From Phoronis australis (taxonomy: Eukaryota > Animalia > Phoronida): 64,000 nt of DNA. The stretch lies in the NCBI GenBank assembly GCA_002633005.1, contig NMRA01000016.1:1070034-1134033 (forward strand). Reading direction: 5' to 3'. Within the stretch, counting starts at the first letter, position 1. Each line of letters begins with the position of its first letter. A program made the position numbers and the translations under genes. Shown here piece by piece: positions 1 to 57,042 of the stretch. The notes beneath the pieces were generated by a model. That model was not told the DNA's origin. It saw nothing but the letters and a program-made list of their open reading frames with translations, and made no database searches.

Positions 1-159
1 ACTTACATGTAACATAAATTTGCAAAAAAGGCACAATTGTGAGATGGACATTGAGAATAAGATTGTTCAAACATCCCTGCAGTTTTGCAGTGAAGCAGCA
101 CTGTGCATGTGATTTATAAGCATTTGATGAATGTTTTTAATTCAAAGCCGATGCATGTG

Positions 160-3100
160 TTAGCTTGAATCAAAGGCTTTCGAGAACTCCTGCCTGTGAC
201 TGATCGTGTAAGGTTCACTTCGTCTGAAGACAGACTCAGGTGGATCCGTGTGCCGAGGATCATCATAAATAGTGGATATTACAAAGTCACTGGTCTTTTG
301 TCTCTTCCGGCCAATACCAACATAGCGGTTCAATTTTTCGCCACGGTAACTGTAAAACAACAAACGGGAAGTCAGTAAACAGAGGTAAAAAATTGCGTAT
401 AAGCTACAATGGTCAGATCTGATATTGTTATGACAAAGTGATCGTTATTTAAAGTCAGAAATGTTACAGGAACAGATCCAAGATCCACCAGGCACTAGGA
501 ATTTATGAGAAAGATCACCATTAAGAAAGAGCCCAAGGTTTGAAAAAAACCCCGTTGGCTCTTTCGGTATCATTTTGACGTATGGCAAGAAGTGCCAAAG
601 AGGATGGAGCATTGGCGATAGTGTGGAAGGAGTGATAGCATTATCTATGTGAATGTGTGTGCAAGATTTCTCAATTTTGTTTCTTAAAAGATCCGTTAAA
701 ATAAACACTTGTCAACACAGAAATCACAAGATATATTTTAGTCAAATTTATCAACAAAGCAAACCTCAGCCGGTTATTGAAACCCTGACCATCTGTAGTG
801 TAGTTAGCAATATAAGCACTAATATTATTTTCCAAAAGTGTTCTGACGGCATTCTGGGCACAAAATCACTACGTGAAAATGGACATTTCTGGAAAAGTCT
901 CCAACTGGCTGTTTCGGAAATTCTACATTTTAAGTGAATTCGGGCACCTCGGTACTGAATAAGAATTCGTGACACGCCCGACAGTGTAAATCTATAAACA
1001 GGTATCTCATACTGACTGGCATGATTTGATATACAAATATACATGTATTTGGTATTCTACCAATTGGAAATTACATATCACTTTCTAGTTACTCAATGTT
1101 ATATTAACCACGTTACATACCCAAATCCAGACTTATCCCTGGGTTTCTGCCCCTCATTCTCAAGAGCTTCAGATATCCCAAGATTCGCCACATTTCCAAG
1201 ACCTTGACCATCTTTCCACCCCTTTTGCTCCATGATCCTACGTCCAATTCCCTGAAATGACACCTAAATCTGTTAAAGAACGACAAGCTATAACCCATGT
1301 GCTAGCACAGCACTCAACCAACAACAAAAACTTAAGAACTCTCGCATTCGTCCGGGTTAACCCCATATGCTTTCTAATTGAAGAACTCATAAATTAGGGG
1401 GGGGGGTGAATAAAGCTGAACCACGCAGACAATCACGATCCCAAACTGCCACATTAGTGTCAGCTTACATAACTTGAATAGACATAATACAGTGTTTGTA
1501 AGTCACAGGTGCAATCTGTGCGAATTTTGGTTGTTGAAATTCTCTGTCGATAGGCGTAGAAACAAGCATTAGGGGCTTTAAAATGAAAATTCCGAAAATT
1601 TCTGGGGAGGGTGTTTAGCTAAATATGGGCGTTATGCAGGACGAGAGCACTATTTTAATTTTCAATTTCAACTCCTGTAACCAAAAGAATTTAACGGAAT
1701 TTGTCAGTTGTGATCAAAAGGTTAAAATTTGTAAGAAAATGCAAATTTGCTGCAAACTGCATCACCATTCACACCAGTCACAAAAAATAAAATAAAAATT
1801 CAAAGCTCCTTGTAATGCCACTCTTAATTTTTTTCAGTCTGGATCCACTTTCACTTTGAACTATGATTCTGAATTTCCCTAATTAAAAAAATAACCAAAT
1901 GGCATTCATTGAATGTTTTGAGGCAAGAATTGTTGCTACAAACTTGCTTCATTCTAGTTTGATGATGGCAATAATGACTTGGCTTAATTAATACTATGCA
2001 CGGCTTTAGTTGCAAAGTGGACCCGCCGAAAATTCTAAGCAAGCTCGTCATTTTGAATTGCGATTTCTCCTTGACAATAACTACCTTAGTGTACTTCTCA
2101 AACTTTCCAATGCCACTACTTTCTCCTTTCTTTCTAAACACGCTGTCTAGAACCAATCCTTCCCTTCTCTGCTTTTCTCTCCTCATCTGCACATAGTCAC
2201 GTGAGTCTTTGTCACCGCCATTCTCCTCGTAATACACAGACATGTCCACGTCCCAGTCATCTGCTGTTTGTTCATCAAAGTCTGAAACCAGACATGTAAC
2301 TGGATCATGAGACATTTTAATAGACCAGTAATGAACTGTTTTAGTAAGTGATACCAACAATTCAATATTTGGTGACTAATCAGTAATTCTTCCTATGTGT
2401 ATTTTCTGTAAGAGGAAGCCTGAGACTTTGTTTCTTTTATACTAGGAGCGTGACGTTGTTTAAAACGTTTGGAACACTATAGAGAACTGGGTTAAAAACA
2501 GAACCAACACCTCTCTAGGTACAAATACAGTCACGTCACTATTTGGCAACAGATGTAGAAACCACCCAGGTCAACACTCAATTTTATGTATTTGAAATTC
2601 CACTCACATAAGCAATGACACAATGTAAACCTCCAAATTTAGCCATCTTGCAAAAAAGAAATAGACTGCTACTACTATTCCGAGAAATATCATATAAAAC
2701 ATCTTTTACGATGAATCATGATCAACCCTCATAGTCTGTATTCTGTACATCAAGTAACATCCTACACCCACCCCCAGCCTCTCTCTCCTCCCAGAACTGT
2801 GCATCGGTGTAAAACACTAGGCCACTGCCNAATGTTTCAGATTCAAAACTTTGTGATGTCAGTGTTGCTACGATAAAATAGCAAATAAGAAATAATCTTT
2901 AGTTAACATTTTGGTTTTAGACCATTCAGAAATTCAGTCCTGTACACTAAAACGGTTCATTAGCTACTGCAAACATGACTTGATCCAGTTTAAGTTGACC
3001 TAATCATCATTGCATGGGCTTAAGACTTAAGAAGCGCAAAAACACACACATCTCCAGAATCGGGATCCTGTTGTCTGTTTCTTTCCGTTTCTTTTTCTTC

Positions 3101-4870
3101 CTCTTCCAGTTCTTTCAATTTTTCTCTCTCCTTTGCTTTCTCTTGAATACATTTTTCAATATCTGGATTTTCAGCTTCAATAACATTACCCTGTCCATCG
3201 CGGACTATGGTTTCATCGTCTTTTTCCTCTCTTTCACTCATCACACCTTTGTAATCAAATGGAACACGTCCGTATTTCCTGCACTTTGTTCTAGGAAAGG
3301 TGAGTCCAAGTTTCTTAATCACTGCAGGAGGTAGGCGGCATTCTTTTATGGAATTTAAAAATATTCTGGAGGGTGTCCCGACGTTGCCTTTGGGCATTAT
3401 GTCAGGAGGGTGCAACTCGGGTAAACTGTGTAGATCTTCCTTAGTGAAAACCTCTCTACTGCGGAGTGCATTCTTCTGTTCCAGTCTGGTTTTGTATGGG
3501 TTGATGGACACACCACCTGCAATGTAATTAGATAGCACGGTTTGTTTAAGAGGAAGCTAGTTGCTGTGCAGAAGGAAATAAATTATAAAATCCAATAACT
3601 AATTTGTTATGTAAAAACCACTAAACGTCCTTCAAAGATCCTTCCAGAAATTTCTGTGAGATTGTCTCCCTTGCCGTAGTACAGCAAACTAGGTCTTACT
3701 ATCTTCACTGTCACACCCCATCTGACAATTTCTAAATCTGTTAATATTGCTCTTGCATTATGATTGGCTAACAAAAATAACAATATTTTATTGAATCGTG
3801 TCATTTACTGACATTTTGCTCATCAACTATCATGAGTTTGTGTACCCTTGTTATAACCAGGGTCACAAAACAAACAATCATAAACAACTTTTTCAGTAAA
3901 ATATTTGCTACTTCTAGTATGACCCTACAATTAAAGTACAAGCTATTCTCACACACTTGGTATAACCAATTTTTGTTCTGACACTGTGTTAAATGTTTTA
4001 AATATGACAAACACTATGACAATTCTTCACTTATTTAACTCACATTACGAATGACAAATGAAATTCTATTTTGTCAAATTTCATCACAAAAATAAAGATG
4101 AAGAAAACTTTAAGTCTACTACTACTACCAGCATAGTTTGTACTCTGAAGATGTCATAAAACAACATTTGGAAAAGTTTCCACTATTTGCATCGGCCTGT
4201 GAAATACTTTGATGTTAAAGAAAATTTCCAACTCCTGAAACAACTTATTAATGTATATCACTGTCTACTTCTACTAGAAGACAGTGAGATACATTAAGAA
4301 GTTCTAGATTTACTGAGGCAAGGTAAGGTCTTCAACATAAATTAACTGTGAATGGGTGACCATGCTCACTACATAATGCTGAAGACATTGCTAAACAGTC
4401 GTCAACTCAACTTCATGAATAATCTTAGGCCTACCAGTCTTACCACGCTCTATAGAAGCAGGAACAGGTTCATCTATTTTTATTTTCGCAATATTACACA
4501 TAGTTCTCATGCTGTTTCCTTGTCTATCCAGCCAATGTTTTTTATGGTAAAATTTAACGAAATCGTTCCTCTCATTGGAGCCTAATTTGACCACGCAGCA
4601 GGTGGTTTTCTTTTTATGCCCTGACTTGCTGCCTGGCGTTGCTGTAGGCAGTTCGTTTCTATCACAATGCCGCTCGTTCGTTTCATTCGGCTTTTCAGAA
4701 GAGACAACGTTTTCGCTCGTTTGACGTTCCGGGTATTCTGGACGGTGACGAAAGTGAAAACATTCGAATCCGTCAGATTCTATGAAATGTGAGAAGTAGT
4801 TCCTGAGATCTTTGGAATGATACGATGATGGAATATTGCCGATCAGTGCATAAACGTCGTCACAACTCAT
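160..4870 (-). CDS. GPATCH3: G-patch domain-containing protein 3 (spliced; one exon partly lost at an assembly join)
   Basis: Exons (minus) are 4870-4444, 3516-3050, [n at 2830]2829-2772, 2281-2085, 1251-1121 and 349-160. All visible junctions are GT-AG and phase-consistent. Recognisable GPATCH3 motifs: NIPSSYHSKDLRNYFSHF..CFHFRHRPE, LPELHPPDIMPKGNVGTP, GSGLVFYTDAQFW, DFDEQTADDWDVDMSVYY and the G-patch GIGRRIMEQKGWKDGQGLG...GFGY. Confidence 0.93.
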
Positions 4871-6082
4871 CTCAAATCAACTGTTTGCTATAATATGATC
4901 TCCTTTATAAAAGAGCAACCAACTGCAACTGGTTCCCTACCTGCCGCTAGGTGGGGCGGTAGCCGCGCCAGCACGCGTGTTGGCTAAGCACCAGGGAACC
5001 AGCGAGTATGGTGGTGCGTAGTCTTGATAGATAGCTTAATACGGAATCAATGCACTGCTACGCTGACGACTGCATTGTCGCCAAATATTCCAGCGCGCGT
5101 GACCATACATCATAGAAAATTTATTCAAAGTGTTGTTGTGAACTTGTAGTGGCGTTGGCTTGACGGATATTTTATTTAAATTCGGAAAATATTCCGTTAT
5201 AGAGATGACGACACCTAGAGTTACCAGGCGGAATCTAAACATTCTTCACCATACATNTTTTTTTTTTTTTTTTTTGTTTTTAGCGTCCCTCTCTTTGCCA
5301 ATCCGCTTGAAGGAAGATTAGTAGCATTTTTTTCTTTTCTTTACTTTTCTTGTACCTCAAATTCTACCAACACCCTTGAATGATATACTTGTATTATGTT
5401 GTATGTTATCAGTTGAGAAGAATAGGCCTGACCTTCGTTTTGTGACGTGTTCGTTAATTGTGGTGCTTTGAGGTATCTTTATGAAATGTTGTACAGATGT
5501 GTTCTTGTCCTTAATCCACACTACAGGCACTATATTGGGTCGTCTGGTGAAATTTCAGGCACCAGTGCCGTTTAACAATCGCAGGGTGCACCTTTAGTTC
5601 TTTGAACATTATTAAAGTGTAGGGAACTCATCGAACATCACGGTGGGGTTCTGAGTAGGACTTAAATTCTTCATGAACAAGTTTCACACGTTTTGTTAGA
5701 TCGTCATTTGTTCGGGAGTTTTTTTGCTCAGCCATGGATTTGCTACGATCAAGATGGCGTACTTTCTGAATCCACGTGGTGGTGCTGCGACCACGTCACA
5801 CACGTCGTCCAGCCAGTCAAAACTCGTGGACATAGATTAGATCTATGGGTAATTCTGGCTGCTTTGACTCCATCAAAAATTACTGAATGCCTGTGCACCA
5901 ACATTCCAATTCATTTCTTTCAAGTGAGTACAAATGTTAAAATTGCGAATTAGAAAATGTGCACCCCCCCTACCACTTAGCTGTGCACGCAGAGTATTTT
6001 TGCGTTTTTATTATTTTCGTGCACCTAGTCATGCTTATAGATATGAATACTTAATATCATAAAACTTAATTATAATTTGCAG

Positions 6083-9000
6083 GCACTGTTAAGCCAACTG
6101 GAAGTGGAGAAGGTGGAGGTACGTTAATATTGTTCTCCAATTTAAAATTAACTTAACGATAGCTTGACAACTCGCCGCTTTCTCGACTAGCTTTAACAAC
6201 ATCATTTTCACATCAGTGCAATTCCAGTTGTTGCTCCAAACTGCAAATCTCCTTGTACGAACTCAGTTTTTCCTAATGAACAGGCACTCTCCTATGATCA
6301 CATCTACTGATAACATCAGGAATTAGTTGGAAGGCATTGCTTTAGGCCTGTTCAAACTGTTTGAACATTTTTGAAAACATTTTTTCTAATGTTTTGGAAA
6401 TGGTGCAGGGAAGGGGGAACACAGTATAGAACTGTGCATTGAAGCCCCACGCACAGAAGGTCTCTTATTGCGAAAGGTCATTGCCTCCCCTGTGTGCAAA
6501 CTGTCTTTTCATTGATTTTACTTGGATGCATTTATAATCCAAAGCGTGTGTACTCCGAAAGTGCAGTATTTATAAAACCAAGACAAAATATAACATTTCA
6601 GTTACATTATAATAATATGTTTGCTGGAGGTTGACTTTTATTTTCAAATTGTGAAAGCATTGTTCATTTTCGTATTTGGCTGTTTTTTAATTTGAATTTT
6701 CTTCGTCACACGGCTGCAAGGCCGCAATCCACTTTTCTCACGTGTTTATTCAACTTTCTCTCATCGAGCTTGCAGCTCCCACCACGGCAGTAATACCTCA
6801 TTGTTTATTGCTTCTTACTCTGTGTTTCTCTCAACACTACCTGTGTTGTCCACGGTAGGCGGATTACACTTCACGCCTCCATTTACATTTGCCGGCTACA
6901 ATTTCCTATGCGGGCTATCAAAGTAGGGAAACTTATCGAACATCACTACATACTCAGGTGTCCTGTGTAGGACTTCTTTATGAACATGTGTCTCGGGTTT
7001 TGATAGATCGCCGTCATTTGTTCCCCATTAATCCTGTTCAGCCAATGAAGTTGTTGCAATGGGTACTTTTTGAAACTAATCCTCATGGTGGCGCAATGAC
7101 TATGCGAGACAAGTCAAGAGTTCCACTCCTGGCCGCTCTAATATCTGATGAACAAGTTTTTTGCTAAACAAAAGATTTGCTGGATGCCTTATAGGCACTA
7201 AATTTTCAGTTTATTTCTCTTAACTTAGTATCAGTTATAAAAAGCAGACATCCAAGTCATGTTATTTTTGTGACATAGCTGTAAACACAAAATAAAATAA
7301 CGCTATTTGGGTGTGCATTTGTTTTAAGTCTCAAATTTGACTGATAGGTACCGAAATTTTTCGTAGATTACCCCATCCGATGACACGCCCATGGGGTTTC
7401 ATTCAAAATTATGCCAAATACAAGACCATTGGCGTTAACTTGGTGTTGCAACTTCTGGGCCCGGTCTCTAATCTTTGTACTCGAACGAACTCAAAACTAT
7501 TTTTGGCAATTTCTCTGCTCCTTTTGTGCGGACTTAAGATAATTGGTCATCAGACTGTGCTCGAATACATTATAGTTTATGCATAGGAGTTTCTAGTTCA
7601 AGCTTGCCCTTGAAGACCCTTATGTTCGTGCTAAAAACTCGAGTAAAAACTCGAAATTTCGAGTTCAAACTCGAACTTATTGCTTTAATATTGGGTTTAC
7701 AAACTGTGAACTAAGGGCAATAAATTATCTACGTAAGTTATTGTGTACTCGAGCATAAAATAATAAACACTTATCTTGAGTTCGCCCAAAAATAGAGTTG
7801 TAGAAAATGCCAAACCTAATTTCGAGTTCCATTTCGAGTAAAAAGATTGGAGACCGGGCCCTGGTGTCAAGTGTCTAGATAATGTGGCATTTATTCGGAA
7901 AATTATCCTCTTAAATGTCCAATCAGCGTCAACTTTTAGTCACAAGTTCAGTTTTGTGGAGCATTTATCACTTATAAAAACAAATCCAGAAGGACTGGTT
8001 TCTCTTACAAAATACACATCACACTTCAGGATGTCATTTGCGTAGCCAAAACTGACTTTCCGCTTACACTTCCCTTTTTCGGAATTAACGCCCGGGCGTT
8101 TATTTGCTGTTACTTAACAATGCCTGATTTTTTTCATTTTCCGTATTCATGCCCATGGGCTTATCCACGAAAAATCACTGTTAGGATACTTATTGTAAAA
8201 CTAAATTATGATTTACAGATACCGTTAAGCCAACTGGAAATGGAGAAGGTGGAGGTATGAAATATTTTTATCTAACTCAATATTAACTTTCTTCACTGAA
8301 ATCGAGCAGAACTGAATAGTAGGCAGATTATATGCTGCTTTCATGGGAAGAATATTGGTTTTCGGGCAACTGAGAAGTAAGAAATGCTAGGAAAACACAA
8401 AGGACGCTAAAGTGTAGGATGAAAACGATGTTCGGATATAAGTCAATAATCATCCTCAGGTTAAATGAGACAGAAAACAAAATATATTAACTGAATGCTA
8501 ACTTCACATCACATGCAAAACAAAAGATCTGTAACTAAAAACTGTACCACAACCCTTGCCTGAATACTTCAACATTCGTATTCAATGACCTCTTAGTTTT
8601 GAGGGCTTGGATGTGAGTAGCCTCACAGGTTAAAAGTTTGACAGTTTTATTGTCACCGAGAAGAAGCTTGACCTCACTTAACCCTTTAGTGTGGTCCGGA
8701 GAACTGCAACGATTGTTGTGAGTTTAACGTTGGTGTGACCACTCGAATTTTGCATCATTGACTAGCTGAACTCGAGAATTATGTCAACAGTTCCCTGTGT
8801 ACTCATTTTATCAACACTAGACACACTATTTAGATGTCTTAGGTTTTGTGCTTCATTCTTCTTTACTCACTGTAACTTTTTGCCACTTGGTTTTCCATTT
8901 GTGTGGAGACTCAACTTTTATGTATACGAATATATCTTGTAAAACTAAATCGTGCTTTACAGATACTATTAAGCCCACTGAAAATGGAGGTAGTGGAGGT

Positions 9001-12000
9001 ATGTCAACATTTTTTATTATTTAATTCTATACACTGAAGACTTGACTTAATTGTAGGCAGACCATATGCCACTTACACGAGAATAACGTTATTTTTTGCC
9101 TAATTAGGAGTAAGAAATAGAAAACAAAAAGGACATTTGAGGGCAGCATGGAAACAATGTTTGGATATTAATCAAAAATCATCTTGAGTTAAAAGAGTAG
9201 ACAGTAAACATAATACCATTACAGAATGTTCACATCACAATACATGGCACAAGATCTGTCAACTGAAAACTCTGCGACATACTCCAGCCTGCATGCATAC
9301 AGTGTAAACATTCCTATTAAGTGACACCTCCGCATTGAGGGACTGAATGAGAATAGTCTCACTGATTAAATTTGAGAGTGATTGTCGTGGTCAAGAATTA
9401 ACCTTGAGCCCAGGAAACGCTTTAGTGTGGTCAGGTGAATTATAACGATTGGCGTGAATTTTACCTTGGCATGACCACTCGAATTTTGTGTCATAGACTG
9501 GCTGAACACAAGAAAGATGTCAACAGTACCCTGTGTACTCATTCTATCGACACTGGGCACACCAGATTAAGTTTTCGTGTTTCATTTTCATTCATTCACG
9601 GTAACTTTTCGCCACTTGGGTTTCCATCTGTGAGGACACTGCAATTTCACTTATCTATAAGAATACTTACTGTAAATCTAAATTCTGGTTTGCAGATACC
9701 ACTAAACCAACTGGAAATGAAGAAGGTGGAGGTATGAAATATTTTTCTCTGATTCAAAGTCGTTCTATAAAAGCAGAGCTCAATGGTCAGGGTTTCCATT
9801 TGTGTGGAGCTCCACTTTCATGTGTAGATAAGAATACTTCCTGTAAAACTAAATTCTGGTTTGCAGATACCGCTAAACCAACTGGACATGGAGAAGGTGG
9901 AGGTATGTTGATAATTTTTCTGTAAAACAAAAAGTTAAATTTGTTGGCTGATTACTTAGAGCTTAATAGTAAGTCAGACCATGTGCTGCTTTCACGAGAA
10001 CCATCAATAACATCGTTTTTTATCAACACAATTCGAGTTGTTCAAACTGCAAATCTTTTACCGAATCAATGTTTCTTGAACACCTGTCGTGTGATCACTT
10101 GCATGGATAACAGCAGACATGCGTGTGACGTGTGCCTCATTGCTTTAGGTCTGTTCACCTTTTGCGAAATTTTGTAGCTTTTTTCCAAATGTTGCTAAAT
10201 TTGTTTCATGGCTTAGGAAATCTGATTTCTATCGTGCACTAACCCTGAAGGGGTTATGATCTGAAGGGCATTTTCTGTGAAAGTCCGTTAACCACTGAAG
10301 TTATATCGGTGTCAAGTGACCATTTACTTTGATGCATTTAGTTCAGAGCGTGTCTTCCGAATCTGTTGTACTTGTAGATTGTAAGACACATAATATGCTG
10401 TATTGATTAAATTACAGGAAGATGTTTAAATTGATTTTTATTTTCAAATGTTTAAAGCATTAGATATTCTTACTTCTCTGTTCTATACTTTAACTTCTTT
10501 TTCTTACATAATTGGTGTACGCCACGCAAATACANCACTTACACGAGAATAACGTTATTTTTTGCCTAATTAGGAGTAAGAAATAGAAAACAAAAAGGAC
10601 ATTTGAGGGCAGCATGGAAACAATGTTTGGATATTAATCAAAAATCATCTTGAGTTAAAAGAGTAGACAGTAAACATAATACCATTACAGAATGTTCACA
10701 TCACAATACATGGCACAAGATCTGTCAACTGAAAACTCTGCCACAACTCCAGCCTGCATGCATACAGTGTAAACATTCCTATTAAGTGACACCTCCGCAT
10801 TGAGGGACTGAATGAGAATAGTCTCACTGATTAAATTTGAGAGTGATTGTCGTGGTCAAGAATTAACCTTGAGCCCAGGGAACGCTTTAGTGTGGTCAGA
10901 TGAATTATAACGATTGGCGTGAGTTTTACCTTGGCATGACCACTCGAATTTTGTGTCGTAGACTGGCTGAACACAAGAAAGATGTCAAGAGTACCCTGTG
11001 TACTCATTCTATCGACACTGGGCACACCAGATTAAGTTTTCGTGTTTCATTTTCATTCATTCACGGTAACTTTTCGCCACTTGGGTTTCCATCTGTGAGG
11101 ACACTGCAATTTCACTTATCGATAAGAATACTTACTGTAAAACTAAATTCTGGTTTGCAGTTACCACTAAACCAACTCGAAATGGAGAAGGTGGAGGTAT
11201 GAAATATTTTTCTCTGATTCAAAGTCGTTCTATAAAAGCAGAGCTCAATGGTAGGGTTTCCATTTGTGTGGAGCTCCACTTTCACGTGTAGATAAGAATA
11301 CTTTCTGTAAAACTAAATTATGGTTTGCAGATACCATTAAACCAACTGGACATGGAGAAGGTGGAGGTATGTTGATAATTTTTCTGTAAAACAAAAAGTT
11401 AAATTTGTTGGCTGATTACATTGAGCTTAATAGTAAGTCAGACCATGTGCTGCTTTCACGAGAACCATTTATAACATCGTTTTCTTATCAACACAATTCG
11501 AGTTGTTCAAACTGCAAATCTTTTACCGAATCAATGTTTCTTGAACACCTGTCGTGTGATCACTTGCATGGATAACAGCAGACATGCGTGTGACGTGTGC
11601 CTCATTGCTTTAGGTCTGTTCACCTTTTGCGACATTTTGTAGCTTTTTTCCAAATGTTGCTAAATTTGTTTCATGGCTTAGGAAATCTGATTTCTATCGT
11701 GCACTAACCCTGAAGGGGTTATGATCTGAAGGGCATTTTCTGTGAAAGTCCGTTAACCACTGAAGTTATATCGGTGCCAAGTGACCATTTACTTTGATGC
11801 ATTTAGTTCAGAGCGTGTCTTCCGAATCTGCTGCACTTGTAGATTATAAGACACATAATATGCTGTATTGATTAAATTACAGGAAGATGTTTAAATTGAT
11901 TTTTATTTTCAAATTTTGAAAGCATTAGATATTCTTACTTCTCTGTTCTATACTTTAACTTCGTGTTCTTACATAATTGGTGTACGCCACGCAGATACAC

Positions 12001-15000
12001 TACTACTTGAAACTTTAAAAAGTTTCTTAACTCGCAGTTATGAGCTTAACAACACTCCCCCCCCCCCGTCCCCCTGATCAGTGATACATGTAGGTGGCAG
12101 TTTTGCATGCTTTGGTCGTATTATTTGTATCTAACATGACCTTACCAAATTTTATTTAAAACTTTTGGCTGGATAACTATTCCTTTTGAAAAGGGAAAAA
12201 CTTCACCACAGGATTCCAGTTTGCTGTTTTACCACCTTTAATTGTATTTCTTGGTCAGGCTCCTCATGTATTTTATGAAATAAGAAAAGGCAGCGTAACA
12301 TTTCATAGAATTATGATAATGTTTCTATGAAATTTTTAATATTGCCGTAAAAATGCTTCACTCGTGACAGGATGCTGCAACAAGGCGCGTGTAATTTCTG
12401 CGTCAGATGCGCTAAGGCACGTCATGAAAATAACTGAGTCATTAATGCTTAGATATTGTGCCTACGCATAAGCCTCGGTTTGCAAAACAAATTTGAATAA
12501 CAGTCTTTACCGTAAGAGATTATTGACTGTGGTTGTCATTATTGGTGACCTGTTGAAGATGATAACTAACTTAGAAAAATTGTTTTCACGCATTTGGTCT
12601 TGCGGAAATGAGGCCTTCCACAGATGTGACAAAGTTGAAGGTTATCGTTGGCCACGCAAATTATGCGTAAATTAATTCTTATGAATGGGTAAATTAACTT
12701 TTAACAGGTGATCGTACATTAATTCTTTACTACATAAATTATTTACTGCACATATTTTTTATTTGCGGTGCAAGTTAACTTTTAATGGTGAAAATTAATT
12801 GCTAACGGCATAATTTACTTTTAACTACATAAAGCAATTCTTTACGGTATAAGTTAATTACTTGCGCTGCAAATTAACTTTTAATGGAATCAACTGAACT
12901 TTATCTACGTGCGTAACGTTCACTCATTTGGCCAACAATAAATTTGAGATGCAAATAAGTAATTTGTACCATAGAAAGATATTTATTCTAAGGCCCAAAT
13001 AATTGATTTACACAATTAAAGGTTAATTTATGCACCAAATAATTAATTTACACCCTCAATTAACAATTAATTTATGCTATTAATAGTTATTTTACGCCGT
13101 CAAACAGAATTACATATAATTTATGCTTGTATTTTTGCATAACGTTTACTGAATTCTTCATAAGAGCACAGCCCCAGAAATAGCTTTGGCATTATATCCA
13201 GGTTCTCATTCATTCCCTTCCATACATTCACTGTCTAGTAATTCCGAGCTCAGAGGTGTAGGAGCCACCTTGAAGCCAGGATTCGAACCCGGGTCTCCCA
13301 AACAGGAATCTGCAGCTCAAACCACTGAGTCACACTGTTTACTGATTTATGTGTAGGTAGAAGAGCGTCTAGATCAAAATCGTAAACAGGGAGGGCACTG
13401 GATCGGCTGGAAACGTGGGCCAATCAAATGAAGCAATGAATATATCGACAATTATCATTGGCTGACTTATGTCAGACATAAATGCGATCCATGTTAGATA
13501 TAAATAGAATAGTGGTGGATGAAATGAATGTTATTTATGTATGATATGACTAAAACTATAGTTGACATTAATGATTTTTGTACGATATTATTACACATAA
13601 TTGTCAGAGGTAATCTGAATGATATTGCACTGCGCCAGTCATCATGGATGTGGTGCTTCCACAGCCCGGGCGTAGTGTGCGTGCTCTGCCCTGTGTCTTG
13701 CAATAATGGAACGTATAAATGGACTATGAAATTTCCCTTAGGGAAGATGTGTGGCGTTTTGTTCACAATTCATGCCATGAAATTATAGGGATATCAAAAG
13801 GCTGAAGTCAGAAATGATCAACCTTGGAGTATATACTATACACGACCTTTGCATGTTTTGAGACATGTGCCTCTCCCCACTAACATGCCATCATGTCACT
13901 TCCAATTTACCCAATCTTAGCACGTTCCTAAAATATATTTTTGAAATGTTTATCATTGGACAATTTAAGAAAAGTAATTATATGAAATCGTGAAATCTTT
14001 AAAATTGCACAGTTCATTCAACTCCATTGATTTCAGATAACTCGGAATAAAAATCTGTATGCAAAATAAACTTCTCTGATGTTGTCTAAGTTAAATTAAT
14101 TTGAATATCTGATTTGTCCAAAATCAAGTTGTGATAGATATCGGAACAGCTTTATCACTGAACTGCAATCTACTAAAAGTATTTTACCCTTCAATCATTT
14201 CATAACTTCCTCATTATTTTATGATGAAGGCAGCTAGATTGATATATTTTGTTTAATCTCTTCTCAAACGCTTGCACGAATACAAAGCAATACAGTACAA
14301 TGCAATGCAATGAAATGCAACACAATACAGTACAGTGCAATACAGTACAGTACAATAAAGTACAATACAATACAGTACAATACAATACAATATAATGCAA
14401 TACAATACAATGCAATGCCAGATAAATGCCTCTTGGCGCTTCCTGGGTTATGTATATTCATTGTATTCTGAAAGTTTCGTAATAAACATTAATTAATAAA
14501 AAATAACAATGCCAATGTCTTTCCAGACGCATTAGAGGCCATACAACTGAACAATTAAAGGACGAGTAGCAAACGGTATTTCATCTCATAAGCAGGTCCT
14601 GGCAATTACCAGCCAGTCTATCAAGTTTTGGCTTCTTCATCACTAACTGTTTAACATTGTTGACATCCCATAGGCAGATATAAGGGTGACCTTTCCCCTT
14701 TACGGTATCCTATATCCCCCGATGCTTTCAATATATTAAACATTTCTGATCAAAGCTCGAAGTAAGCAGGACATTGTATTAAAATATGAACTTTGTCTTG
14801 TACTACCCCACAATGGCTCTGACAACACATTCTATCCCCATACATTAAACCTCAGCATCTTAATAGACCAATTAGTGCGTGGACAGTCGGACCTGCACGC
14901 TGCCAAACCATTTGGTTCCTTTCATTCTGGTTCATGTTCCATATCAAACTTGAAGTGTCTAAACAGATTGTTTTTGGTTTCCAGTCCCTTATTTCTCACT

Positions 15001-15309
15001 TCCGTCAATTGCTGAACACCGCCTCAGTATTTATCTCAAACAGAGTTGTTTCTTAGAAGCTGACCCAAACCACCCTTTTCTGTAATGTACATCGTATTGA
15101 GAAGGCTGGCAAGACTCCTAGCGAGGTCGCTTTCAGAATACTGAGTACAGTGTTCAAGTTCCAGCTATTTTAGTCAGTCTTTTAAATCAGCTAAATGCCA
15201 CTGACCTCTTCTTGCAGCACCGGCTGGATGCGACAATATTCCAAGCAAAGTCATACTCGGCGCAGCCTTTGTTGTGATGGCGATCATCTCCACCAACATT
15301 TACATGTAA
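6083..15309 (+). CDS. Orphan micro-exon gene, probably a GPI-anchored Gly/Thr-rich repeat surface protein (5' part not identified)
   Basis: Seven 36-nt AG/GT-bounded exons at 6083-6118, 8219-8254, 8963-8998, 9696-9731, 9867-9902, 11161-11196 and 11331-11366. In phase 1 they read (G/D/V)TxKPT(G/E/R)x(G/E)(E/G)(G/S)G. A terminal exon 15218-15309 follows a ctcttcttgcag acceptor and reads APAGCDNIPSKVILGAAFVVMAIISTNIYM* in phase 1. AATAAA at 16212. Confidence 0.72.
7458..7860. mobile_element. PIF/Harbinger-like MITE in a micro-exon gene intron
   Basis: About 40-bp imperfect TIRs (ggcccggtctctaatctttgtactcgaa / ttcgagtaaaaagattggagaccgggcc) with a 3-bp CTG duplication on both sides. CWG TSDs are known for Harbingers. 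Confidence 0.75.
9070..11999 (+). repeat. About 1.46-kb direct duplication (9070-10534 vs 10536-11999) across a single n
   Basis: About 98% identity by eye (roughly 30 non-exonic differences). Each copy carries two micro-exons. The junction is exactly the n at 10535. Confidence 0.9.
12655..13160. repeat. AT-rich degenerate foldback/MITE-like segment
   Basis: Recurrent aaattaacttttaa motifs in the left half and complementary ttaattta(t/c) motifs in the right half. Ends not resolved. Confidence 0.35.
13272..13337 (-). mobile_element. tRNA-derived SINE head / tRNA pseudogene fragment
   Basis: The minus strand has an A-box-like TGACTCAGTGG (13332-13322) and a B-box GGTTCGAATCC (13289-13279) at tRNA spacing, but no clean cloverleaf. 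Confidence 0.55.
14281..14417. repeat. Pentanucleotide microsatellite (TACAA/TACAG/TGCAA)n
   Basis: Directly visible. It explains the spurious Cys/Ile/Val/Leu/Tyr ORFs at 14200-14461. Confidence 0.95.
15218..15309 (+). CDS. Putative terminal exon encoding a GPI-anchor-type C-terminal signal
   Basis: Pyrimidine-rich acceptor, then small residues (APAG), a short polar spacer, a hydrophobic stretch VILGAAFVVMAII and a stop. The phase matches the micro-exons read in phase 1. Confidence 0.65.
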
Positions 15310-15509
15310 AGCTTTGAAGACATCAACTCTGGGCCAATCGTTTTATCATCCCAACTGGTTAACTGTACCGCAACCGTCGGGAAGGCAAGAAACAATGTAC
15401 TCCAAAGTTAAAACAAAATTATTTTTTTACAATTCTTAGCAAAATGTTCAAGTTGCGTGACCTAACAGGTGTTTTTATGAACTAGGTTTTAATATTTTCA
15501 TGCCTTAAG

Positions 15510-16050
15510 ATGTTCAATCGTTAATTGGTCGATGAACGTGTTATATATAATAAGAATATACTGTTTTGTTTGTTATTTATTTGGTTATAACAACTGATTT
15601 ACAGTATTATAGTAACGCAACAGTCTCAAAGGCAGACAATTAAGTTCTTCTATGTTAAAACAGTATTATTTTTTAGTGCCCAGCAAAATACGTATTGTTT
15701 TGAGAAATTAACATATGTTTTTCTTGTACCGTATTTTGCTCTTTGTACATACGTCATATGTTTCGTTAACATAATTTTCATTTATTGTTTGTTCGATGAA
15801 CGTGTTAATTGTTATTGAGATTTACTGTATTTACTTTGTTTGTTATTCATTACTTCAATGTCGTAACCGTCGTAAAGGCAGACAATAAAGTACTTTGGTG
15901 TTGAGGAAAATACGTAGTGTTTTGAGAACCTAACATTTTGTTTTTCGTTTTGCGTTTCGTTTTTTACCTGCGTGTTGTTGTTCGTTGGATGATGTTCAAT
16001 CGTTACTTGTTTGATAAACATGTTAATTGTTATTCCAATTTACTGTAAGT
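15510..16050 (+). repeat. Degenerate about 240-260 bp tandem repeat (about 2.3 units) in the putative 3' UTR
   Basis: Recurring blocks gatgttcaatcgtta, gatgaacgtgtta, aaaggcagacaat and aaaatacgta.tgttttgaga near 15510, 15780 and 15991. Confidence 0.6.
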
Positions 16051-16300
16051 GTTTTGCTTGTTTTTCTGGCAAGTGTTGAAAATAGTTTTTTCCATTATGT
16101 TGGCTTCACTTGAAATTGTGTTCGTTAGGACTTTTTGCTTGATGGTTTCTTGTACTTTGCTGTTGATGATATTCCTTCAAGCGTTGCACGCACTGCTCTG
16201 TTTAACGTTGAAATAAAACTTTATGGAAACATCATTTTTCATAGTGATTTTGCGAAGCTCCAGATTTCAAGAAGACATTCCATATGATATCCGGATAAAT

Positions 16301-17137
16301 ATAGATTATTTCATGGCGAAGTCGCTATCCCCCGTATTCTAGAGCCCGAGTGGATTTTGGGGCGATAATTCTCCAAAATCCACGAGGGCTCTAGAAAACG
16401 AGGATAACGACTGAGAACATGAAATAATCTATTTATAGCATATACTGAACGAGAAACATTGCAATGAATCGATCTACCTTTGTCGACTCGCTTCGGCTTT
16501 GTAGCTACTTTCCATGTCAGAGGCCCGGGGTCGGAGTTCGTGACCTTTTAAGAAAAGCCGAGTTATTTTGGTCAAATAATGCTTTTACTCAAAATCTATT
16601 GAAAATTTAAACAAAATAGAAATAGAATGAATCTATAAATTAAGGTTTAGCAATTATTATAGCTTAACTACATATTTTATCACGTCAAACTTCGACCGGG
16701 AAAATATCGCCTGCTAAAGTAGGTTACCACTGGCAGCTAAGTATAATGCTCAAGCCAAAGGATCCTGACCACACGATATCCGCATTCAAAATGGAGATCG
16801 GTGACTTACAAGTGAGAGAACATGAGAGAAAAGTTTCAATGAATTAAAATATCGTTTTTATGGAAATTATGCGTCTTATTTTTCATAGCGGTTGGTACAA
16901 TGCCCTTTGTTGAACATGCGATTGTTGCGCGTGCTCATTTATGTATTCTATTTTCACGTTCGATGACGTCAGCCGCTGAGTTGTGTAGTGGTAAAGTCGA
17001 CGACTCGAAACTCTTGCGGCCCGTGTTCCAAATCGGCCTCGGTTCTCGCCAAAATGATATCTCACGAGTGAGATAACTAAATGGGTTATTACACGGTTTT
17101 ATCGGCCATTCGAGGATAATGTTGTGTTATAATACAT
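16301..17137 (+). mobile_element. Non-autonomous terminal-hairpin element with internal tRNA-like module (copy A)
   Basis: 5' hairpin 16301-16432 (atagattatttcatg...catgaaataatctat), a conserved body, TGACGTCA immediately before a tRNA-like segment 16972-17043, then the small hairpin tatctcacgagtgagata. Homologous to the copies at 17140, 17963, 18440 and 23494. Confidence 0.8.
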
Positions 17138-17139
17138 TG

Positions 17140-17920
17140 TATACCACATACCGAGATAACATTTTGGCGGGAAACCGAGGCCGGATTCGAACCCGGACCA
17201 AAGATTTTATAGTATCTTTTCCCGGAACTCAAGAGTTTCTGGTCGCCGACTTTACCATTACACCACTCATCGGCTGACGTCACCAAGAGTGAAAATAGAA
17301 AACTTAAATGAGCATGCGCAACAATCCCATGTTCAACAATCCGTATTGCACTCACATCTATACTATCTGAAAAATAAGACGCATAATTTCCATAAAAAAG
17401 ATATCTTGATTCAGTGAAATTTTTCTCTCATGTTCTCACACTTGTAAATCACTGATCTCCAATTTGAATGTGGGTATCGTGTCGTCGGGATCCTTTGACT
17501 TGAGAATTATACTCAGTTACCAATGGCAACCTACTTTAGCAGACGATGGTTTTCCGGCCGAAGCTTAGCGTGATAAAGTTTTTTAACCTATATTAGTTAG
17601 TAAACCTTAATTTATAAACTCACTTTATATCTATTTTGTTTAAATTTTCAATTGGTTTTGAGTAAAAGCATTATTTGACAAAAAATAGCTCGGGTTTTCT
17701 TAAAAGGTCACGACCTCCGACCCCGGGCCTCTGACATACTGTAGAAAGTAGTTACAAAGCCAAGGCGAGTCGAGAAAGGTAAATTGATTCATTGCAATGT
17801 TTCTCGTTTACTATGTGGTATAAATAGATTATTACATGTTTTCAGCCGTTATCCCCCTTATCTAGAGCCCGAAAGGCTCTAGATAACAGGGGATAACGAC
17901 TTCGCTGTGTAATATTCCAT
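17140..17920 (-). mobile_element. Same element family, inverted (copy B), tail-to-tail with copy A
   Basis: Reverse complement matches copy A along its length. Its tRNA-like module 17274-17174 has B-box GGTTCGAATCC and about 30 extra nt. Confidence 0.8.
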
Positions 17921-17962
17921 TTTCATGTAACGAAGATACATACATCCATTGAGCTATAACTN

Positions 17963-19312
17963 TTTATCACGCCAAACTTCGACCGGGAAAATATCGCCTC
18001 CTAAAGTAGGTTACCTCTGGCAGCAGAAAAGTATAATGCTCAAGCCAAAGGATCCTGGCCACACGATATCCGCATTCAAGATGGAGATCGGTGATTTACA
18101 AGTGAGAGAACATGAGAGAAAAATTTCAATGAATTAAAATATCGTTTTTATGGAAATTATGCGTCTTATTTTTCACAGCGGTTGGTACAATGCCCTTGTT
18201 GAACATACGATTGTTGCGCGTGCTCATTTATGTATTCTATTTTCACGTTCGATGACGTCAGCCGCTGAGTTGTGTAGTGGTAAAGTCGACGACTCGAAAC
18301 TCTTGCGGCCGTGTTCGAAACCGGCCTCGGTTCCCGCCAAAATGATATCTCACTAGTGAGATAACTAAATGGGTTATTACACGGTTGTATTGGCCATTCG
18401 AGGATAATGTTGTGTTATAATACATTGTACATGTATACCACAATATTAACCTCGAATGGCAAATACAACCGTATAATAACCCATATAGTTATCTCACAAG
18501 CGAGATAACATTTTGGCGGGAAACCGTGGCCGGATTCGAACCCGGACCAAAGATTTTATAGTATCTTTTCCCGGAACTCAAGAGTTTCTGGTCGCCAACT
18601 TTACCATTACACCACTCATCGGCTGACGTCACCAAGAGTGAAAATAGAAAACTTAAATGAGCATGCGTAACAATCCCATGTTCAACAATCCGCATTGCAC
18701 TTACATCTATACTCTGTGAAAAATAAGACGCATAATTTCCATAAAAACGATATCTTGATTCAGTGAAATTTTTCTCTCATGTTCTCACACTTGTAAATCA
18801 CTGATCTCCAATTTGAATGTGGGTATCGTGTCGTCGGGATCCTTTGACTTGAGAATTATACTCAGTTACCAATGGTAACCTACTTTAGCAGACGATAGTT
18901 TCCCGGCCGAAGCTTAGCGTGATAAAATGTTTTTTAACCTATTTTAGTTAGTAAACCTTAATTTATAAACTCGCTTTATATCTATTTTGTTTAAATTTTC
19001 AATTCTTTTTGAGTAAAAGCATTATTTGACAAAAATAGCTCGGCTTTTCTTAAAACGGGTCACGACCTCCGACCCGGGCCTCTGACATAAAAAGTAGTTA
19101 CAAAGCCAAGGCAAGTCGAGAAAGGTAAATTGATTGATTGCAATGTTTTTCGTTTAGTATGTGGTATAAATAGATTATTACATGTTCTCAGCCGTTATCC
19201 CCCTTATCTAGAGCCACTCGGGCTCTAGATAACGGGATAACGACTTCGCTATGTAATAATCTATTTTCATGTAACGAAGATACAATGTACATACAACCAT
19301 TGAGCTATAACT
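17963..19312. repeat. Second copy of the A/B palindromic pair (duplicate of 16676-17961) across the n at 17962
   Basis: Near-identical to 16676-17961. tRNA-like modules at 18261-18331 (+) and 18623-18523 (-). The right flank gagctataact is duplicated. Confidence 0.85.
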
Positions 19313-24423: not shown

Positions 24424-24612
24424 TATTTATAGTCAATTGTTCGCAAGTCATGATAACTGATTCACACATGTGCACACAATGAGATACATGGCGTGCACAT
24501 TCTTTCAGTCAGGTCATGAAAGGTTTGCACGTGGGGCGTCCTTTAACGTTGGCAAAAATAGTATTGTGAGATGCACGCGATTCAAATGCAATGAAATGAC
24601 AACTTTCACTTC

Positions 24613-25434
24613 ATGTACAAAATGACTTTTGATTTGTGTCACTTCAATGACAATTCAGTCCCAACAAATATAGTTAGTTTTCTAGCTGTATTATTATTTT
24701 TTACGTGCGAACGGGAAGTAGACGGTAGCCGTGCTACCACAAGTGCCAAACTAAAGGATTCACCCAAAATCATCGATGTAAGGCAATCTAAGTACACTAT
24801 ACAGTTCAAAGCATCGTGGAGTGAACTCGACAACACGGCAACAAAATCCCCAATCGGTTACTTACTACTCTTCAGGAAAAAGGGCGACGAAGAATGGAAA
24901 GAACTTCGCGTTTCTGCAGATCGTGAAGTCTGGGACATGCAAATGGAAACCCACTTTGGTGAGACCTACCAAGCTAAACTAAAAGCATTATTTGCCGAAA
25001 TTTCTTTCAATGAGACTTCAAGTCCTGTTTTAGAATTTAAGGCGGCATACCTAGACGAACGCGGCGGCGAAGGCCTATTTCTGTGGATCATGGGTGCAGC
25101 AGCCCTCTTAATTCTGCCTCACGTGATCACGCTGATCTACAGGCTTGCAAATAAGAAGGTTGTAGTTAAAGCAGTTAGCAGTGTGGCCGTAGGTGAAAAC
25201 GTCAGCGACCTCTACGTTGCATTTCTGCCGGATTTCAGAGCGGAAACAAAAAATGCAGGTGGGAAAGAACTCGCGGAGTCTACAGAACCATGTAATATTG
25301 ACACAAAACCTGAACCAGGACAAAATGATGTGACGAAAAACAGTGCACTTGAAGCTAATATTGACACAAAACCTGAACCAGGACAAAATATGACGACAAA
25401 CTATGCGCCTGAAGCTAAGGTGCATTACAGCTAA
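24613..25434 (+). CDS. Orphan single-pass membrane protein with one fibronectin type III-like domain
   Basis: 273-aa ORF. Hydrophobic leader IVSFLAVLLFF, FN3-like pattern (ASW...PIGYLLLFRKKGDEEW...GETYQAKLKA), TM LFLWIMGAAALLILPHVITLIY and a cytoplasmic tail with a duplicated NIDTKPEPGQN. The true start may instead be spliced in at the acceptor ttttctag|24686. Confidence 0.7.
   Translation: MYKMTFDLCHFNDNSVPTNIVSFLAVLLFFTCEREVDGSRATTSAKLKDSPKIIDVRQSKYTIQFKASWSELDNTATKSPIGYLLLFRKKGDEEWKELRVSADREVWDMQMETHFGETYQAKLKALFAEISFNETSSPVLEFKAAYLDERGGEGLFLWIMGAAALLILPHVITLIYRLANKKVVVKAVSSVAVGENVSDLYVAFLPDFRAETKNAGGKELAESTEPCNIDTKPEPGQNDVTKNSALEANIDTKPEPGQNMTTNYAPEAKVHYS

Positions 25435-28435: not shown

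Positions 28436-45932
<17,497 letters not shown>

Positions 45933-46089: not shown

Positions 46090-57042
<10,953 letters not shown>

Follow-up and report, generated by a model that had tools for sequence, protein, structure and literature searches.

The window examined here, that is, the whole stretch of 64,000 nucleotides from the phoronid Phoronis australis, carries a plus-strand gene of 36-nt exons lying head-to-head with a minus-strand neighbour at about 1900-4870, the orthologue of GPATCH3, for which 10 matches were obtained among 92 candidates at 42-47% identity, the nine named ones belonging to molluscs, a brachiopod and a hemichordate. Further to the right lie a plus-strand open frame of 279 codons (24595-25434) whose tail contains a 30-nt repeat and for which a membrane segment is predicted, with no Pfam match and just weak chance matches in the PDB, and, by Pfam, exons of a myotubularin-type phosphatase (about 32100-41800, minus strand) and of an AIF-like pyridine nucleotide-disulphide oxidoreductase (about 54200-56700, plus strand). 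The features of the micro-exon gene are the following.

5257: single N separating unit 1 from the promoter side of GPATCH3; might be a gap with 5' exon(s)
6061..6070, plus strand: branch-point-like motif at -22..-13 of unit 1, repeated before every unit
6083..6118, plus strand: unit 1, 36-nt phase-1 exon with an RNA joint to 8219; reads may be paralogous
8219..8254, plus strand: unit 2, 36-nt phase-1 exon, acceptor of the unit 1 joint
8963..8998, plus strand: unit 3, 36-nt phase-1 exon, 7-10 of its 36 nt differing from the other units, the largest divergence
9070..11999: tandem copy pair of 1465 bp, copies 9070-10534 and 10536-11999, single N at 10535
9696..9731, plus strand: unit 4, donor used in 79/47/1 reads (X5/X6/X7) and joined back to a unit-2-like exon
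9867..9902, plus strand: unit 5, with 65 sense reads at 9872 in X5 and in X6
11161..11196, plus strand: unit 6, a probable second allele of unit 4
11331..11366, plus strand: unit 7, a probable second allele of unit 5
15218..15309, plus strand: last coding exon, phase 1, predicted GPI signal as read from the sequence
15310..16217, plus strand: 3' UTR with AATAAA at 15884 and 16212, end position approximate

A motif scan of both strands recovered seven phase-1 units of 36 nt bounded by AG and GT, all on the plus strand, at the places and with the peptides that an earlier sequence-only reading had assigned to them, together with the hydrophobic last exon; in 200 dinucleotide-matched random sequences the mean number of such units was 0.05 and the maximum 2. 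The model has seven introns, each running from GT to AG, the one that leads to 15218 among them, and since every unit is 36 nt long and in phase 1-1, any subset of units keeps the frame. No further convincing small exon emerged from a splice-site scan of 5258-15217. The conserved acceptor context to which that reading had also pointed was borne out: AAA[AT]CT[AT]AAT starts exactly 22 nt before the acceptor end of every unit and, with this spacing, before no other acceptor on either strand of the window. Because it resembles the branch-point consensus CTRAY, the -22..-13 motif may well be the branch point. When unit 1 is compared with units 2-5, identity is 88% over the motif and 81% over the exon, as opposed to 31% and 34% for the flanks, and in the comparison for unit 3 the corresponding values are 97%, 76%, 48% and 37%; the acceptor motif and the exon are thus under selective constraint, whereas the flanks have diverged.

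At the protein level, T, K, P, T and the last G are invariant in all seven units. Taken across the 21 unit pairs, pN (0.150) falls below pS (0.189), a comparison by which positive selection on the units is not established, and the total lack of synonymous differences among units 4-7 is suggestive of selection, the differences being too few to call. Some local sequence features could offer alternative splicing choices: within 9695-9901, the 135-nt intron that separates units 4 and 5 is a multiple of three and stop-free, so that its retention would keep the frame; units with GAAGGT contain, 6 nt ahead of the donor, a further GT in frame, a candidate alternative site; and in-frame upstream AGs at 9828 and 11292 are candidates of the same kind.

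A search of sequencing runs listed four DNA runs and no RNA run that contained the last exon; three raw RNA runs and one contig set were added as data of the same species. Reads from these RNA runs (X5, X6 and X7; 18-19% of each run) were aligned, along with the contigs of X1, to positions 1-17000 of the window at 90% likeness, and the statements on junctions made below are based on 15 of 143 joints and 24 of 1478 loose ends. Spliced reads joining the 36-nt units were found, as the sequence-only reading had anticipated, the joint from 6118 to 8219 (unit 1 to unit 2, GT..AG) occurring in 153, 116 and 2 reads of X5, X6 and X7, respectively; the splicing of a hidden gene of symmetric phase-1 exons is thereby shown in RNA. 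As first mates fall on the minus strand over the units and on the plus strand over the minus-strand GPATCH3, the micro-exon RNA is transcribed from the plus strand. When the depth of a bin is assigned wholly to the exon in it, sense depth per base reaches 384/284/4 (X5/X6/X7) for unit 1, 551/482/6 for unit 2 and about 34/33/0 for unit 3, near which (8989) a sense depth of 22 was read in X5; GPATCH3 shows a depth of about 1 per bin and is low in all three RNA runs. The micro-exon gene is thus strongly expressed in X5 and X6 and hardly at all in X7.

Other transcribed stretches were seen within and beside the gene. Sense intronic RNA covers 9073-9639 (depth 3.7/1.6/0.06) where no exon is recognisable, and may be pre-mRNA or paralogue sequence; intron 1 contains at about 7450-8170 a very high-copy repeat with inverted ends, huge DNA depth and opposite-strand RNA joints, possibly a MITE-like element. 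At the left edge of the window (1 to about 700), plus-strand RNA reaches a depth of about 30 in both X5 and X6 and of 0 in X7, the sample pattern of the micro-exon gene, and has the look of a 3' UTR belonging to a gene upstream; positions 1-1200 share no similarity with the 3' UTR region (15201-16400).

The exon at 15218 ends in 19 hydrophobic residues with no cytosolic tail (peak 11-residue hydropathy 2.81), preceded by the small residues A-G-C and a spacer of six polar residues. The four-part scheme of GPI signals described in PMC5054108 comprises a small-residue site, a spacer of about seven residues and a hydrophobic tail that no cytosolic tail follows, and by inspection the exon fits this scheme as a predicted GPI signal, with attachment probably near A-G-C. 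This reading gains support from a second last exon present in the RNA, about 80% like that at 15218, which 242 and 252 reads join in frame to a unit-2-like exon: it differs from 15218 at 6 of its first 30 nt (5 of the 6 changing amino acids, as counted by hand), but retains the A-G-C triplet. The proposal that the units feed a GPI-type tail is thus supported in RNA by the paralogous last exon; none of the 15 joints (of 143) ends at 15218 itself. Sense RNA depth amounts to 22.6/21.5/0.5 (X5/X6/X7) in the bin of the last exon and to 38/37/0.5 over 15310-15876 of the 3' UTR, where individual sites show 11/12/2 (15506) and 10/7/0 (15715).

On the 5' side, 107 reads join an upstream exon, known over 30 letters only, to unit 1 in phase 1 and with an open acidic and polar frame. 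This exon is unmatched in the window (at best 9 mismatches in 27), and positions 1-6082 yielded five weak ATG..GT candidates for a signal-peptide exon, none of them convincing or covered by RNA. The N at 5257 may hide the sequence of the 5' exon(s). A different explanation is that the copy in the window represents a minor duplicate, or one truncated at its 5' end, and makes no protein, nearly all reads being paralogous; the missing 5' exon, the lack of RNA depth over 5104-5670, the disagreement between window letters and reads at 6083 and 9872 and a depth of only 7-12 at unique UTR sites would all agree with it. We regard it as improbable, given that sense reads from the same two runs fall on the diverged unit 3 and on UTR sites that are single-copy in DNA, that frame, splice sites and branch-like motif are kept in all units, and that a single N stands just where the 5' part would be.

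While seven units are present in the sequence, as the sequence-only reading had counted, they are probably not seven independent exons. Units 4 and 5 lie in the first copy of the 1465-bp block and units 6 and 7 in the second; the copies differ by 30 substitutions in 1463 aligned bases (2.05%), which equals the haplotype difference found nearby (10 in 460, in one X1 contig), and at 11341-11907, inside copy 2, DNA depth drops to 21.3, the minimum among the 30 bins. Two of the six single Ns in the window sit exactly on junctions of tandem copies (10535 and 17962), for which a rough estimate gives a chance of about 2e-7. According to PMC9516828, false heterotype duplication is marked by half depth and by gaps that separate the duplicates within one scaffold. 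Because of the single-N junction, the haplotype-level divergence and the low depth in copy 2, we hold it probable that the block with units 6-7 is the second haplotype scaffolded in tandem, and hence that there are five exons rather than seven.

The distribution of the differences does not fit this reading as neatly: 5 of 72 exon positions differ between the block copies versus 25 of 1391 intron positions (Fisher p=0.014), and all five exon differences change the amino acid. Such an excess speaks against plain alleles, which need not show it, and may stem from selection, from conversion by other units or from mis-collapsed repeats. At 9872, in unit 5, X5 and X6 have 65 sense reads each, every one of them with a letter other than that of the window, and so has the one X1 contig there. 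A second tandem pair at 16676-19312, with its single N at 17962 and 40 substitutions in 1272 aligned bases, is probably another haplotype duplication. Caution is advisable in this assembly, where single-N tandem junctions probably inflate exon counts.

The locus appears to be one of several. Single contigs of the DNA run over unit or intron sequence have depths of 183 and 252 against 34-49 for long single-locus contigs, figures that are summed contig depths and give no copy number, and the RNA holds unit variants, an upstream exon and a second last exon that do not occur in the window. Backward joints are of four kinds, each with 47-127 reads in X5 and in X6 (unit 1 to unit 1 twice, 63+85 and 54+50; unit 2 to unit 2, 127/121; unit 4 to unit 2, 79/47), and their letters are partly those of no unit in the window. 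The simplest reading of the read variants and backward joints is a family of paralogues with different arrays. As unique UTR sites of the window copy are only 7-12 deep, most unit reads probably stem from paralogues, which would outnumber the window copy roughly tenfold. Within the window, exon-plus-intron blocks of uneven size are 73-98% identical, in agreement with the tandem exon duplication proposed at the outset; variation demonstrably arises in DNA, by way of such blocks. What is present here is a real, expressed gene family of an unannotated type but of a known architectural kind.

The same variants might instead be alleles of one hyper-polymorphic locus, with the extra units and the second last exon representing divergent alleles of the RNA donors under diversifying selection of the self/non-self or gamete recognition type. 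The amino-acid changes at all five exon differences between block copies and at five of the six seen in 30 nt of the second last exon, like the absence of synonymous differences among units 4-7, are what such a locus could produce, but with about 74% of sites being non-synonymous these counts are not significant alone, and pN stays below pS over the 21 pairs. Given, moreover, that neighbouring DNA is only about 2% different (the 10 in 460 of the X1 contig) and that unit contigs of one DNA run reach depths indicative of several copies in a genome, we find this explanation improbable.

The sequence-only reading had gone further and proposed a surface protein tuned combinatorially by exon skipping, in the manner of the micro-exon genes (MEGs) of schistosomes. 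Were symmetric exons skipped, repeated or trans-spliced, many stalk isoforms could come from one gene, and the uniform length and phase of the units would permit it; RNA does join units out of genomic order, as well as a unit-2-like exon directly to a last exon, and SmPoMuc transcripts are reported to contain more repeats than the genes (PMC2576457). Non-window letters in the backward joints and a last exon only about 80% alike are, however, just what paralogues would give, which explain these joints equally well; no forward skip is seen among the 15 of 143 joints, paralogue reads being a confounding factor; and the conserved branch-like motif, the CAG acceptors and the GAG/GTA donors would suggest strong constitutive exons. 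Tuning by exon skipping is so far not upheld, and we consider a MEG-like system rather unlikely. The same low weight goes to a broader version, a MEG- or SmPoMuc-like system in a non-flatworm invertebrate in which 12-residue cassettes of GPI-anchored glycopeptides would be shuffled both in RNA (skipping or exon repetition) and in DNA (paralogue conversion) under diversifying selection. If true, it would imply a tissue-specific variable surface coat at a self-recognition, gamete or microbe interface, and any proof of skipping or exon repetition would mean that combinatorial surface variation of the MEG type is no parasite speciality.

Homology searches returned little for the micro-exon protein. 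A protein search with the unit alignment gave no match at E<=10 among 221 longer and 5 near-length candidates; the ESM Atlas gave the tail no match of 0.9 or more and the repeat stretch no usable match; Pfam matched neither tail nor repeats; and both pattern scans of metagenomes came back with 0 loci. A profile search of the full library, with a profile of 69 positions that included read-through intron, yielded a VWD/WxxW mucin and a protein with a ricin-type lectin domain, both of which were dismissed as chance matches, neither having KPT. The micro-exon protein thus appears to be without a detected homologue, the queries being weak, and is best read as lineage-specific: a strongly expressed family missed altogether by ORF-based annotation and protein searches.

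The composition of the repeats gives some indication of what the product might be. Every unit (7/7) has a Thr at position 2 with Pro at +3 and a Thr at position 6 with Pro at -1, and Thr with Pro at +3 or -1 is a context favoured for O-GalNAc addition; the units contain no N-glycosylation sequon, and two of the seven have a Ser-Gly. Over 84 residues the repeats contain 19% Thr, 2% Ser, 8% Pro and 31% Gly, and a Ser+Thr content of 21% is low for a classical mucin domain. The repeats would therefore not qualify as the PTS domain of a classical mucin, and we call them mucin-like only.

Our preferred reading, to which we assign a probability of about 0.6, is that the window contains one copy of a multi-copy family in which a 12-residue Thr/Pro/Gly repeat per 36-nt exon makes up a small, likely GPI-anchored and O-glycosylated surface protein whose stalk varies mainly by genomic duplication and exchange. 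Each repeat would be its own spliced exon, five of them in the window copy among several paralogues, and the units would be mostly constitutively included; a signal-peptide exon, absent from the window sequence, would lie upstream, and the chain would end in the GPI-type last exon. With O-glycans on the invariant Thr2 and Thr6, the predicted product would be a lipid-anchored stalk that is short, flexible and glycosylated, possibly serving in the glycocalyx or in recognition, and duplication or exchange of exon-plus-intron blocks would be likely to vary this stalk more than regulated skipping.

CD24 and CD52 are small GPI-anchored glycopeptides with a short chain that is presumably heavily O-glycosylated; unlike the gene described here, they are not known to be built of tandem micro-exons, and homology is not claimed. 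Among better documented systems, MEGs are described as flatworm-restricted genes with 10-20 exons of 6-81 bp (mostly 15) and documented skip isoforms (PMC4015677, PMC4350168, bioRxiv 2023.06.21.545858). The gene resembles them, as they are portrayed in these sources, in its small symmetric exons (36 nt, phase 1-1, spliced), its long introns, its escape from gene finders and its presumably extracellular product, but in place of 10-20 short exons of varied length it has 5-7 equal-length copies of one 36-nt exon. The units make up at most about 54% (five units) to 63% (seven) of the coding part seen (a 92-nt last exon and at least 59 nt upstream); in MEGs most of the coding sequence, up to 75%, consists of micro-exons. 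The named GPATCH3 matches next door are not from flatworms, and no homologue of the repeat was found; MEG membership fails on both exon variety and lineage.

SmPoMuc of Schistosoma mansoni, a multigene family with a 27-bp repeat exon in tandem genomic repeats of about 1 kb (PMC2576457), comes nearer. Both systems share a short repeat exon duplicated with its flanking introns in tandem blocks (27 bp there, 36 here), a multigene family (indicated here by the second last exon, the extra units and the high-depth DNA contigs), repeats that are hard to assemble, and repeat introns unexpectedly alike beside differing exons. They differ in that no sequence relation was found, that blocks here are uneven in size (170 to 2136 bp), and that SmPoMuc, as described in that source, has 15 exons, repeats at the 5' end and an intronic ribozyme, whereas here the repeats pass directly to a GPI-type last exon; the 15-exon gene with a conserved 3' part that defines the SmPoMuc family proper is not what this locus contains. 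Chicken Muc13 likewise devotes one exon to each stalk repeat, splicing control of length being put forward in PMC1552070 as a proposal rather than a demonstration, yet its repeats are of 20 residues and accompanied by SEA/EGF domains, a transmembrane segment and a cytosolic tail, as opposed to Gly-rich repeats of 12 residues, no domain seen and a GPI-type end here. The open literature library, with the terms chosen, gave no paper on such a layout ending in a GPI tail in any lineage other than flatworms. Our comparison would thus place the gene closer to the one-repeat-per-exon mucin-like genes exemplified by SmPoMuc and chicken Muc13 than to MEGs, and would extend their one-repeat-one-exon layout to a GPI-type surface protein and to another animal lineage.
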